DNA of 64,000 nucleotides from a virus (Duplodnaviria > Heunggongvirae > Uroviricota > Caudoviricetes), in the IMG/VR virus record IMGVR_UViG_3300017987_005500. One strand, 5' to 3'. The translations under genes were made by a program, and so were the position numbers. This document shows positions 58,028 through 64,000 of this stretch, piece by piece. The notes under the pieces were generated by a model. That model was given only the letters and a program-made list of their open reading frames with translations, did not search any database and was not told where the DNA came from. Positions within the stretch are counted from its first letter, which is position 1, and each line of letters opens with the position of its first letter.

Positions 58028-58888
58028 TTATACAATAGAAATAACTTTTTGTATAATCTCATTTATATTAGGAATATTATCTATAAACCTAATAACTTTC
58101 CAACCTTCATTTTCAATTAATAATTGTCTTTTCTTATCATATTGTTTATCTTGATGCCAATAACTATCATCATATTCAATTGCTATCATTTCACTTGGAA
58201 TTGCAATATCAATTGAAAAATTTAAACATGGATATTCTAGTTTAGTATCATTAAAATAATTAGAAATTATTTTAAATAATTTAAGTTGAGGTTTGGAAAT
58301 TTTAGTAACTCCAGCTCTAGCAGCTAAAAATCCTCCATTTAACATATAATCTCTTTGGTTGTTTCTAAATTCACTTGTCTTTTGATAACAAGGTGTTCCA
58401 TATTTCACCATACATGTATTTCGAGCCTTTAATAAACTTTCTTCACTATGCTTTTTTCCATAAAATGGATTTTTATCTCCTATTAATTTTTTCCCTCTCT
58501 TAGATAAATTACTCTTTAATTTATTTGCTTTATCAAATCCAAATTGTTGTTCATATGTCTTCCCTTTATTAGGATGAACAGAATTTGGTTGATTCAACCA
58601 ATGTTTATCTCCAAGTTTATTTTTTGAAGACTTGTCTTTGAACTTACTAGAATTACACATACATTTAACAGAGCAATATTTATGATGACCAACTACAAGA
58701 TTAACCCATTTTGTATATTGGTTGCATCCTTTATAGTTTCCATAATTTAAACAAATATCATCACCATCATTCTTTATATATTTATCATAATATTCTTTTG
58801 ATTTAATATTATGAATTCTTAAATGACTTGTTAATGCTTTTAAACTTTTGAATTCTTTTCTGCAAATCTTGCATGTAATTATTTTCAT
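58028..58888 (-). mobile_element. Free-standing homing endonuclease (C2H2 finger, NUMOD3-like repeats, DUF559/Vsr-like PD-(D/E)XK domain)
   Basis: CKICRKEFKSLKALTSHLRIH; NPFYGKKHSEES; IDIAI...IEYDDSYWH...GWKVIRF; start moved to ATG 58888 (GGGAG SD). Confidence 0.8.
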
Positions 58889-58976
58889 TTTAATTTCTCC
58901 CGTTAGAAATATTAAAAATGGGTAAGAGAAATAAAACGGGTATTTCTCAAGGTGGCCAGACCCTGTCCCCATTATT

Positions 58977-59896: not shown

Positions 59897-60772
59897 GTGG
59901 CAAAAGCAGCAGATGAAAAGAAAACAGCAGCATCAAAGACAGCACCGAAACGTAAAACAAAAAGTGAACGTGAAAAAGAACTTGACAAAATGGTCAGGGG
60001 ATTTAAACCTTACTATGTTGATGTTACCGGTGAATACATTTCAACAATTTCGGGTTCCCGCCCTGAGGATACTGCTAAACTTATCAGTAAACCCTCAAAG
60101 ACAGTCAATGAAGAGCTTCATAAAATTATGAAAGCTCAGGTTGAACTCTGCCTGCAAAAGGGAGATATTGAAGGAGCAACTGCGGCAGTAGATGCTTTCC
60201 AGAACTCTGGAAATGATTTTTCAAATCCCCTTCATGTTTTTCAACGGGATGAACAATGTGGCAGAAGACCTTTTCAAGGAGCTTATATGTTCTTTGGTGC
60301 CTTCCGAGATACTATAAAGATGGCATATCCCAAAGACTTTAATATCTATATTAAGGTTAAAAATACATCCGGACCAAGTATAAAGCACTTAAGAAAGTCT
60401 GTGCGAGTTGCCCCGGATCATATTTTCCTCATGAAAGATGAGGATAATTACATGGAAGAAAGTGATATTGTTATTGAAAATCAGCACCCTGTTCCTCCAG
60501 ACGTTAAGGGTTTCTCTCGTTTTGAGATTCTCCCAAAAGGAGCTATTGTGAAATACCGACTTGAAGTTCACAGCTGTACTCAATTCAATGCACTTGCTGA
60601 TCTCGAGCTTGTTAAGAAAGTGATTATCCAAAGTGCCCTTCACGGAATTGGCTCACGACGAGCTTCCGGTTATGGCCAATGGAAAGTTAAAAAGATTGAA
60701 TTCCATGAGATGGCAGCAATGGAGGGAAGCGATGGACAAAAAGAGGATGAAGACGTCAGCAAGGCTGCGTAA
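59897..60772 (+). CDS. Stand-alone Cas7/Csm3-group RAMP protein (putative RNA-guided effector, Vipr-like)
   Basis: RAMP motif order: beta1 YVDVTGEYISTISGS; FQRDEQCGRRPFQGAYMFFGAFRD (P.ipgsslkGalR-like); FEILPKGAIVKYRLEV; C-terminal G-loop HGIGSRRASGYGQWKV; GTG start after AAGGAG; no other cas genes in the window. Confidence 0.85.
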   Translation: MAKAADEKKTAASKTAPKRKTKSEREKELDKMVRGFKPYYVDVTGEYISTISGSRPEDTAKLISKPSKTVNEELHKIMKAQVELCLQKGDIEGATAAVDAFQNSGNDFSNPLHVFQRDEQCGRRPFQGAYMFFGAFRDTIKMAYPKDFNIYIKVKNTSGPSIKHLRKSVRVAPDHIFLMKDEDNYMEESDIVIENQHPVPPDVKGFSRFEILPKGAIVKYRLEVHSCTQFNALADLELVKKVIIQSALHGIGSRRASGYGQWKVKKIEFHEMAAMEGSDGQKEDEDVSKAA

Positions 60773-60797: not shown

Positions 60798-61013
60798 ATG
60801 GCAAAAGGAATGGCCGATATGATGGTCGAAACTGCGGAGAAACTTCTTGATGGAGAGGTTCCTTTAAAGACTGGTGAAGTCGTTGCCAAAGTAGGTAATA
60901 TACATCAGCTTGAACGCAAAAGAGATCATGATGCTCACGATCGTGGATTAAATGATGAAAATCTTAAAGGTTTTCAAAAGATTTGTAAACAATCTACGAA
61001 AAAGAAAAGATAG
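60798..61013 (+). CDS. 71-aa protein co-transcribed with the RAMP gene
   Basis: GAGGAGG SD before ATG 60798; MAKGMADMMVETAEKLL...KKKR. Confidence 0.7.
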   Translation: MAKGMADMMVETAEKLLDGEVPLKTGEVVAKVGNIHQLERKRDHDAHDRGLNDENLKGFQKICKQSTKKKR

Positions 61014-61023
61014 CAAATGGATA

Positions 61024-61050
61024 ATGGGGCGAGTTATGAGATCGCCCCAT
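61024..61050 (+). promoter_or_regulatory. GC-rich hairpin between the ORFs and the array (terminator/processing/leader)
   Basis: ATGGGGCGA-9nt-TCGCCCCAT. Confidence 0.6.
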
Positions 61051-63028
61051 CCATGGAATATAGTTATATTTATTCCTCTTTCATGGTTTTCTTTTATATT
61101 TAATAGAATGCATAATATATCGAATCCGATCCTATGACATTCTATGTTGTATAATAGAATCCGACGCAATCACATTTTATTCACTAAAATGGGTTGAAGT
61201 TTAACCCATTTGCAATGTGAGCTATGATGCAACCGAATGAAATCATATTAAATAATCTAATAATTTAATTTAATTTGGTTAAATATTTTGTTTTGGTGTA
61301 GAATGTTATTCCATATTATTAATTTTAAATTCCTTACGTTATGATATAATTCAATTTTATTTGATTCGATTTACATATGTAATATTATTTTATGGGACAG
61401 CATCCATTTCAGTTGGATAAAATTCGATATACTATAAAACTTAATTGATTAGCACGTAATTCAATATAATTCCATCCGATCCATTTTTAAAGCAATTCGA
61501 CACAGTACGATCCGGTCGAATAAGTTGTAATTCAATCATATGCATTATTTTATTTAATGCTGTGAAGTATAATTGAATAAAATGGTATTCATAATTCAAT
61601 GCGATGATAAAGAATGCGGTCCTGTCTCATTGAGTCGAATAGAATGGAATTACCTTTTAACTTAAACTTATTTCAACATGAACATATTCAATGCGATATA
61701 ATGCACAATATTATCTCATCCTATTCAGTGCGAAACTATTGAATAAGTTCCTATCCAATGAAATTCACAATTAAATAATGTATGGTAGCTTGTTTTGCTA
61801 TGCGATTATATTTCATCCATAAGTTTTACAATGCCAATAAATAAAATATGCAGTAAAATAGGCATTGAGAGCTTTTGATTTTATGTCATTTTAATCAGTT
61901 AAATCGAATGTCATTCATAAAAGAATATTATTCGTTATCGTATGGTGTGATTCAATTTAATGCTATGTTATCAGATTCACAATAATATACAATGCAAAGA
62001 TTTCCTAAGAGATCCAATATAATTCCGTAAATCGTAAGATTCTTTGCGACTCATTTTAATTCGTTATGGCGCCGTTGAATAACATAATATTCTCTATTCT
62101 ATTTTACCGGTTACGTTCCTATTTGGTAAAATGGTATTTTATTTGATTCAATGATATTTACTTTGTAATACAATGCAAATATGTTCAATACTATGCGTTG
62201 CTATGCGATCCTATTCATTATACATTCAATTTAATACAATATTTTATAATTGAATAAGGTCTTATAAACTTTTTAATCTTACCCGTTCCTATTTAATACC
62301 ATTTAATTCTATAAATTATTCAACTGGTTAGTATGGGGTATTATGGTTTGTAATTACGTAAAATTGTATACATACGTAATATTGATCACTGTATAATTGG
62401 GTATAATACAATACAATCTATATTTCACTGAATTGACTTTTAACGTATCATGCAGTATTATACAATTATGTTCAATTAAATAATGTTTTATGTATTATGA
62501 TATGGAATAAAGTAATGTAGAAAGAAATCCTATCTGATAGCATTTTATACAATCTATATTTGAATTATATCCATTATAATACAGTTCAATGCGATACAAT
62601 ATAATTAAATTTCATTAATGATTCAATGTTACCGGTTTCGATACAATTTGTTAAATTATTATAAATAATTTGATCAGATCGAATTTAATCAAGCATTTCT
62701 TCTTAATATCTGATTGAATGCTATTCAATATATGATGGATGCGACGCCATTCCTTTGAATATTATGAAATAGTATATTATTCATTATTTAATTAGGTATA
62801 ACAACTTTCAATTTTATATTATATCATTCGATAAAATGAACGTTTTAATTGAATCTATTTCTATACGAAGCCGTTCCATGCTATTTTATGCGATGTCATA
62901 GATCTTTTAATTAGATGCTATGCATTTCCATTGATTGGTACCGAATTCTTTACATTTCATTCCAATTCTATCGAATAAATATCTTATATATTTTATGTTA
63001 ACTTTTTACTAAATTTAACTAAATAAAT

Positions 63029-63075
63029 AAATAAGGAATATAATAAAATTAACTAAAAAATAACAAACCTTATTT
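63029..63075 (+). repeat. 47-nt non-periodic element, copy 1
   Basis: AAATAAGGAATATAATAAAATTAA...CAAACCTTATTT; near-identical copy at 63551-63597; terminal AAATAAGG/CCTTATTT inverted repeat. Confidence 0.8.
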
Positions 63076-63550
63076 AATATGTTTTCCAATGCAGTTGAGT
63101 AAAATTCTATTCATGATTAGATATAATAATTTTATGTTTAATACAATATGGTCAAATGTCTTAAGATACAATTTTATTTAATAAATGATTCGATTAATTT
63201 GAATTAGGTTCGATCCATTTACATAGTATTGTATGGAATAAAATACATAATTTGATGGGTTAGGATGTGATAGCTTATGGTATTATTGAATACAATTTTA
63301 TTAATAATTTCATATGATAAAACTCCATATTATTCTATTCTGTCGGGTTACATTCGATCAAATGTATAAAATATTCGTAATTGGATTCTTTGGGATTTAT
63401 TAAGTTTCGATCCTTTTACATCTCATTCTATTTAATAAATCTTTAATATGACTCTATTTGATTAGATGGAGTTCATTAGCACCCTTTTTAATCTAATAAA
63501 ATATACTTTATTTTATATTACTGTATGAGTTTGGGTAATATGAAATCAAC

Positions 63551-63597
63551 AAATAAGGAATATAATAAAATTAAAATAAAAATATCAAACCTTATTT
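63551..63597 (+). repeat. 47-nt non-periodic element, copy 2
   Basis: Near-identical to copy 1, 522 nt downstream. Confidence 0.8.
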
Positions 63598-64000
63598 ATA
63601 ATACCATCCTAAAAGATGTAATTTTATAACATTCTATTTAATAAATCTCTATTAGGATTGAATCTGATATCATGCAGTTGGATAAGTTCCAATAAAATTG
63701 TGTTTTATATATCATAGAATATTATTCATTGATATCCGTTATCTTATAATCCTGTGTCATATAATATCATAAACCATTAATACTTTATTATACTGTATTA
63801 TATCTTATCCAATTATATGAAATCTCATCCACATGGTATAAAATGTGATAGCTTATGGTATTATTGGATACAATTTCATTGATCATTGGATACTTTTGGA
63901 TTCATTCCGATGTCTTATGATCCTATTCAATGTTATTTATATTTTAATTACATCACATTGATTATGTTCCGATCCGTTAGAATTAAATTAAATGCGATTC

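Follow-up and report, generated by a model that had tools for sequence, protein, structure and literature searches.

The 64-base unit at positions 62159–62222 of a stretch of phage DNA of 64,000 nucleotides (IMG/VR record IMGVR_UViG_3300017987_005500; the whole stretch is called the window below) is a genuine guide of a VIPR system, and the decoding given for it here is right. The locus that carries it is itself a VIPR system, a new member of this known family with a variant scaffold. Its leading target candidate is a Flp-family prepilin gene of a host that is not in the databases, an assignment that follows from sequence resemblance and to which we give somewhat less than an even chance. Because matches as close as those to Flp genes are expected by chance, Flp is the leading candidate and not a demonstrated target.

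VIPR systems combine a lone Cas7-like Vipr protein with an accessory vap gene and with vrRNAs built of tandem 5-nt units (GGY + NN), in which NN pairs with double-stranded DNA and one target base is skipped between pairs, the skipped base being the wobble position of a codon in natural targets (bioRxiv 10.64898/2026.04.26.720920; 10.64898/2026.10.15.759431). The published Vipr proteins fall into seven types and the accessory genes are vap1–6, exemplars being the type II system of Escherichia phage SUSP1 and a system in a Pseudomonas fulva prophage; NNNGG, YNNNG and NNNNG are listed as alternative repeats (bioRxiv 10.64898/2026.04.26.720920; 10.64898/2026.10.15.759431).

A VIPR locus in a huge phage

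The carrier is a very large, uncultured, AT-rich phage (~31% G+C in the window). It has RNA polymerases of its own, T4-type baseplate proteins and a tail sheath that is only ~30% identical to that of the nearest cultured phages. We looked for tRNA genes that could identify the host and found none. With polymerases of this kind, a phage may differ from its host in G+C content. The VIPR locus comprises three features:

59897–60772, + strand: vipr-like gene, encoding a lone 291-aa Cas7-like RAMP protein with the G-rich loop GIGSRRASGYG
60798–61013, + strand: accessory ORF of 71 aa, a vap-like candidate, small, conserved and directly after vipr
61053–64000, + strand: vrRNA guide array, ORF-free and 5-nt periodic, in which 46 units of at least 40 nt were called

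Against the RAMP families of Pfam the 291-aa Vipr protein reaches an E value of 0.009, which is below the cut-off, and the profile of its own family gives a weak match to Csm4/Csm3 at the G-loop. Its AlphaFold model has a pLDDT of 87.8, and the top Foldseek matches of the model are type VII Cas7, Csm3 and Cmr4 (E ~1e-7, probability 1.00). On the evidence of this model, Vipr is predicted to be a RAMP protein of the Cas7/Csm3 fold with a G-loop. A phmmer search returned 46 clusters of Vipr relatives, from metagenomes, while tblastn of Vipr against 50,697 phage records gave no match and a search of IMG/VR for loci related by Vipr found nothing. The 71-aa ORF has no Pfam family, and it is 32–33% identical to the ORFs at the same position after the vipr relatives L130 and L131 (E values of 2e-11 and 1e-7).

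In all relative loci inspected, a tract with the grammar NNN-(A/G)-T adjoins vipr on the strand of the gene. Because the third variable base is almost always G in the vrRNA of one relative, the N-R-T scaffold appears to mirror GGY, with the first two bases of the pentamer as the guide bases.

Three of the relatives (L131, L133 and L134) represent a small phage-like element whose Vipr protein is 36% identical and is accompanied by an accessory ORF of 98 aa and an array of 600 nt. This element occurs in assemblies whose accessions adjoin ERZ27256778, that of the window, and may stem from the same study; it also occurs in JGI metagenome 3300017963, from a project of D. Valentine, which we take to be Salton Sea hypersaline sediment; the occurrences offer a hint of habitat. 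Two genes upstream of vipr, on the minus strand (58028–58972), lies a homing-endonuclease-like gene with a C2H2 zinc finger, NUMOD3 and a DUF559/Vsr-type nuclease domain.

Architecture of the guide array

Downstream of the Cas7-like gene, the window is free of ORFs from ~61040 to 64000 and has ~24% G+C. The G/C signal of 61040–64000 has a mean period-5 power of 0.485, compared to 0.19–0.21 elsewhere in the window, and its 5-nt period is as strong as the codon periodicity of the phage genes. Viterbi segmentation resolved it into + strand pentamers of the form NNN-A(.72)-T(.89), which are grouped into units of 9–13 with register shifts of 2 nt between units. A fixed CRISPR-type repeat was sought in the tract and none was found. 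The array continues beyond the end of the window to about position 14500 of L001 and is followed there by a terminator hairpin; in the longest assembly it ends ~500 nt past the window, at a strong hairpin terminator. Its sequence is unchanged in three independent assemblies.

The units abut at 61546/61547, 61591/61592, 61705/61706, 61767/61768 and other borders, without long structured tails. A 2-nt register jump, TCA-CA-AT, GCA-CA-AT or TCA-TA-AT, recurs at these borders and may mark a processing site. The array also seems to break some assemblies: a 72-kb genome contig (G000) breaks off inside it, at window position 63646, while a 163-kb ENA contig reads through.

Only one reading of 61053–64000 is depleted in stop codons. 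In the minus-strand reading that skips the wobble base, 11 of 496 codons are stops, compared to ~19 expected from base composition; in the equivalent plus-strand reading their number (40 of 542) equals the expectation. Because the depletion is confined to this minus-strand reading, it suggests that most guides of the array are antisense to their target genes, whereas for the published VIPR systems targets on both strands are described (bioRxiv 10.64898/2026.04.26.720920; 10.64898/2026.10.15.759431). Within the same interval, the mutual information between the third variable base and the adjacent guide pair is 0.116, against 0.07 ± 0.015 after shuffling, a value reached by 3 of 500 shuffles.

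Validation of the pairing code on the hsdM guide

One unit of the array served as a positive control for the code:

61486–61546, + strand: hsdM guide, read from bases 1 and 2 of each pentamer, one target base being skipped

Its 10-pair pattern has 15 exact matches among IMG/VR viral contigs. All 15 are in frame (ACDTFRGVVDAG) and agree at 11/12 pairs, the wobble bases varying between matches, and all lie near the N-terminus of proteins of ~500–600 aa; the three of these proteins that were scanned each contain HsdM_N and N6_Mtase domains. The mismatching pentamer is the 5′-most one. Because the hsdM guide matches 15 HsdM genes in frame, the pairing rule of the array is that the first two bases of each pentamer pair, that one base is skipped at the wobble position and that the vrRNA is antisense to the mRNA. 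By the same 15 matches, the gapped-pattern method finds targets that are present in a collection.

A possible role of the third variable base in target reading was also considered. For the HsdM matches, which are GC-rich, related sequences, this base equals the wobble base in 63 of 165 cases, and for a Flp pilin lineage (..KEDGAAAVEYAVML.., described below) in 1 of 11. These figures give no support to such a role and it was rejected.

The control bears on the reading in which there is no guide at all and the periodic tract is structural DNA or a chance pattern, the peptides being decoding artefacts. The expression of the array is a prediction from sequence, and Vipr is without a close relative among the sequenced phages, both of which would fit this reading. 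It is nevertheless scarcely credible, given a periodicity that matches the codon periodicity in strength and a grammar that recurs beside every vipr relative inspected, and the in-frame matches of the hsdM guide contradict it.

Decoding of the unit at 62159–62222

The guide in question and the part of it that yields the peptide are:

62159–62222, + strand: guide unit of 64 bases, 13 pentamers
62165–62219, + strand: 11 pentamers, GTAat through TCAtt, yielding EGAAAVEYAVT

The unit reads ACTtt GTAat ACAat GCAaa TATgt TCAat ACTat GCGtt GCTat GCGat CCTat TCAtt ATA, and its informative pairs on the minus strand are AT GA GG GC GC GC GT GA TA GC GT AC GT. The first-pass annotation had decoded 57 bases of it, 62162–62218, as EGAAAVEYAVT. 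When three of five bases are kept and 62165–62219 is then reverse-complemented, the result is its 33-nt string exactly. In this decode, codon positions 1 and 2 are complementary to variable bases 1 and 2 of one pentamer, and the wobble base is supplied by variable base 3 of its neighbor. Since two bases in each pentamer thus suffice to give the residues, the peptide [D/E]GAAAV[D/E]YAVT does not depend on the third variable base. That the unit belongs to an RNA-guided system, as also proposed earlier, is borne out by the period-5 array, by the Cas7-like gene and by the same reading frame being validated on the hsdM guide. Folded by itself, the unit shows no significant RNA structure (z = –0.54).

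The decode contains no stop codon and is G+C-rich, inside a tract of 24% G+C. It contains [D/E]G/AAAV[D/E]Y followed by AV.., and the G....EY pattern noticed in the first pass is therefore present, leading into what would be the start of a hydrophobic helix. G/xxxxEY is the leader-peptidase (prepilin-peptidase) motif of type IVb (Flp) prepilins, and Tad/Flp type IVb pili are built from Flp/Fap pilins (PF04964). Seen on a Flp gene, the guide covers the leader-peptidase site together with the beginning of the mature pilin, the stretch where the gene is most conserved; the hsdM guide likewise lies over a conserved motif, that of HsdM.

Search for the target

The exact 11-pair pattern, [D/E]GAAAV[D/E]YAVT, has 0 matches in genome contigs (one genome per species, 185,579 species) and 0 in IMG/VR or JGI metagenome contigs. 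In this respect the unit differs from the hsdM guide, with its 15 exact IMG/VR matches. The 9-pair core (GAAAVEYAV) was found at no fewer than 120 loci in the genome contigs, that is, at least 120. Of the 120 matches listed, ~80 are MetY-type PLP enzymes of Bifidobacteriaceae and some Acidobacteriota (ASGAAAVEYAVRN), 5 are phosphofructokinases of Kistimonas and Endozoicomonadaceae, and ~9 are short N-terminal ORFs, 6 of which match Pfam Flp_Fap, with only L085 above the curated cut-off; the rest are unrelated or out of frame. A core of 9–10 codons is present in the Flp pilins L085, L029, L086, L010, L070 and L123, and the Flp pilins with the 9-pair core come from Nitriliruptoraceae, Acidimicrobiales and Planctomycetota MAGs.

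The MetY-type enzyme is instructive in its own right. In L004 and ~80 further Bifidobacteriaceae loci the codon-pair string of its motif is constant across the family while the wobble bases vary, so a conserved protein motif can dominate scans with gapped patterns.

Beyond the core, the matches carry little further signal. Among the matches listed, 10 loci extend by one pair and 1 locus by two, compared to ~27 expected to extend by at least one; the matches extend past the core no more often than chance. In IMG/VR the 9-pair core has 4 matches, against 4 and 3 for two shuffled patterns. Flp pilins account for 3 of the 6 loci with 10 pairs ([D/E]GAAAVEYAV) among the matches listed. At the level of single bases, the best loci among those listed agree at 21/22 informative bases and are a Flp pilin of a Planctomycetaceae MAG (L086) and two non-pilins (L052 and L054). 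Over all 13 pairs, the best of the matches listed is a Flp pilin of a Nitriliruptoraceae MAG, at 23/26. For 596 Gb searched on both strands, chance alone is expected to give ~4.5 places at 21/22 or better and ~19 places at 23/26 or better. The best matches of the pilin guide are therefore within chance expectation, and in databases of hundreds of Gb matches stand above chance only from ~24/26 informative bases.

The resemblance to Flp was followed further in two directions. In 401 Planctomycetota genomes, ~107 places match with up to three mismatches, compared to ~90 for a backwards control (counted from the table). About 47 of the ~107 are Flp genes of the type DGPTAVEYAVM (19/22), and the five Planctomycetota Flp loci that were translated are all textbook Flp pilins of 54–58 aa. 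The likeness to Flp, the closest family, appears to be family-wide and not that of a single locus. A profile of seven Flp pilins retrieved 3358 relatives, of which the best 119 were examined. Among them is a Planctomycetaceae lineage, ..KEDGAAAVEYAVML.., that differs from the guide at the last codon only and agrees with it at 21/22 informative bases in nine contigs from several metagenomes. Real Flp pilins (EGAAAVEYAVL.., DGAAAVEYAVM..) share 10 of 11 residues with the decode. Unlike the Flp pilins examined, however, the decode has Thr after EYAV: none of the best 119 of the 3358 relatives has Thr there, the residue being Met or Leu, and no Flp gene was found with all 11 pairs. If the end of the pilin guide were dispensable, like the 5′-most pentamer of the hsdM guide, several real Flp genes would match perfectly over the ten pairs that are left. 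When one Flp pilin was used in a protein word search, only near-identical proteins came back.

Three further searches concerned the surroundings of the guide. In the tad loci that surround the Flp matches, no site was found for any other guide of the array. The guide does not recur in the arrays of eight loci with vipr relatives, where its best match is 16/26. Self-targeting, in which the guide would act against the phage itself, was rejected, the best match in the phage (18/26) being equal to the shuffle maximum.

The proposal of the first pass that the unit is a guide against a Flp/Tad-type pilin thus stands in part. The resemblance to the N-terminus of Flp prepilins is real and the nearest genes are Flp, at 21/22, but there is no exact target, MetY and phosphofructokinase genes share the core, matches as good as the best ones are expected by chance, and the Thr residue is absent from the 119 best relatives. 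The same annotation made the case depend on whether the best nucleotide match is a pilin gene; the best matches do include pilins, but pilins do not stand out statistically.

A functional guide with some other target is about equally likely. The site encoding [D/E]GAAAV[D/E]YAVT would then lie in a competing phage, a satellite, a plasmid or some unrelated host gene that the databases lack, and the likeness to Flp would be a coincidence of a peptide rich in Ala, Gly and Val. Natural VIPR targets in the preprints are mostly competing mobile elements, namely rival phages, satellites, prophage regulators and other VIPR loci (bioRxiv 10.64898/2026.04.26.720920; 10.64898/2026.10.15.759431). The spread of the 9-pair core over MetY, phosphofructokinase and ~25 unrelated single loci among the matches listed and the chance-level quality of the best matches point the same way. 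So do two individual proteins: L054, a 360-aa protein of unknown kind from a Phascolarctobacterium MAG, reads ..AVDYAVT including the Thr codon at 21/22, and a 205-aa IMG/VR protein carries EAGAAAVEYAVGV, which agrees at 19/22 by hand count. Against this, no non-pilin family comes nearer than Flp (MetY reaches 18/22 informative bases and the viral protein 19/22), nothing at 22/22 occurs in IMG/VR or the metagenomes either, and the Flp excess in Planctomycetota concerns the family and not one locus.

It is unlikely that the guide is decayed, a decoy or currently targetless, a remnant of an older target that has drifted, retained in a long array although it no longer has a function. Off-consensus scaffold dinucleotides occur in 5 of its 13 pentamers (tt, aa, gt, tt, tt), the exact target is absent from genome contigs, IMG/VR and JGI metagenomes, and many neighboring units decode to AT-rich strings with stop codons. 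Published vrRNAs frequently show internal degeneracy (bioRxiv 10.64898/2026.04.26.720920; 10.64898/2026.10.15.759431). The hsdM guide, however, carries the scaffold variants ac, gt and tt and still forms 11/12 pairs with its target, the decode of the present unit is free of stops and rich in G+C despite its surroundings, and the array is identical in the three assemblies.

Two other guides with host-like decodes

The first pass had singled out two more units as host-like:

61113–61214, + strand: 20-pentamer unit, the "PEP-utilising" guide, decoding to ..PFEKCAGLITESGGR (..CAGLITESGGR)
62841–62902, + strand: "receiver-like" guide unit, decoding to LTAKAEAVD..

Neither could be confirmed as host-like. 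The 10-pair core of the PEP-utilising-like guide has 0 exact matches in IMG/VR, and in the JGI metagenomes it gave one chance-like match, with 11/20 pairs in a nonsense ORF. Searched in 121 Planctomycetota genomes, the guide gave 2 matches with two mismatches, compared to 1 for the control, which is again at chance level; one of the two resembles a PEP-utilising domain. The 10-pair pattern of the LTAKAEAVD guide has 0 matches in IMG/VR. With its 20 pentamers, the unit at 61113–61214 is about twice the usual length, and it could represent either a fusion of two guides or a single very long one.

Discussion

Taking Flp as the target, we propose the following mechanism. The unit at 62159–62222 would be one guide of a VIPR system made up of Vipr, the small accessory protein and ~50 vrRNA guides in one array, the + strand being most likely co-transcribed with vipr and the transcript presumably processed into single guides. 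The last three bases of each pentamer (N, A/G, U) would form the scaffold gripped by a Vipr subunit, the equivalent of the published GGY, and the first two would pair with DNA, successive pairs skipping one target base. Such a guide is predicted to recognize GAN GGN GCN GCN GCN GTN GAN TAN GCN GTN AC on double-stranded DNA. In a gene, this site would encode [D/E]GAAAV[D/E]YAVT with the wobble bases ignored, and the vrRNA would be antisense to the mRNA. The most likely target would be the 5′ end of a Flp-family (type IVb) prepilin gene, and binding would keep the pilin gene or genes from being transcribed, by analogy with the VIPR system of SUSP1.

What such a block would do to piliation or phage adsorption is a further step. 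The earlier suggestion that the phage represses a pilus used as a receptor is speculation. We consider it quite improbable that one guide, directed against an invariant 5′ end common to all Flp prepilin paralogues of the host, silences the whole pilin repertoire and so removes a pilus receptor (superinfection exclusion) or remodels the host surface.

VIPR was described only in 2026, with rival phages, satellites and further VIPR loci reported as its natural targets (bioRxiv 10.64898/2026.04.26.720920; 10.64898/2026.10.15.759431). If the guide does silence a host pilin gene, VIPR would extend to host takeover and receptor control, in parallel to TldR and flagellin, and the pilin and hsdM guides together would mean that VIPR is used against host genes and not only against rival mobile elements. 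Two results hold whatever the target. The gapped code has been validated independently on an N-R-U variant array in a huge phage, and the calibrated negative implies that the resemblance of a decoded guide to a famous motif at the peptide level is insufficient as proof of a target.

Comparison with known systems

The locus shares with VIPR its phage origin, a lone Cas7-like RAMP gene (here with a small candidate accessory gene) and, behind it, non-coding tracts in which 5-nt units are repeated in tandem, two variable bases in each unit with one target base skipped at the wobble position (validated here on the hsdM guide), and the lack of CRISPR repeats and of cas1/cas2. It differs in its scaffold, which is N-(A/G)-U instead of GGY and is nearest to the alternative YNNNG of the preprint. 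In SUSP1 the vrRNAs are ~100 nt long with a structured, pseudoknotted 3′ tail, whereas here ~50 units follow head to tail with 2-nt register jumps only. The carrier, a huge AT-rich phage with its own RNA polymerases, is unlike the VIPR carriers described, and the candidate targets are cellular-type genes (hsdM, perhaps flp) and not the satellites and prophage regulators of the preprints.

With the backbone proteins of Class 1 CRISPR systems (Csm3, Cmr4 and the Cas7 proteins of types VII and IV) Vipr shares the predicted RRM/RAMP fold and the G-rich loop. Unlike Class 1 systems, the locus has no repeat-spacer array, no Cas5/6/8/10/11 and no adaptation genes, and its period is 5 nt with 2 pairing bases, compared to 6 nt with 5 pairing bases.

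TldR proteins are phage-encoded, TnpB-derived RNA-guided repressors of flagellin genes, for which repression has been shown experimentally (bioRxiv 10.1101/2025.07.22.666180; PMC13418256). They belong to a protein family unrelated to Vipr and use a contiguous guide, and repression of a pilin by the present system is hypothetical in comparison. The likeness is thus in concept only: in both cases a phage would direct an RNA-guided repressor against the subunit gene of a host surface filament that can serve as a phage receptor.
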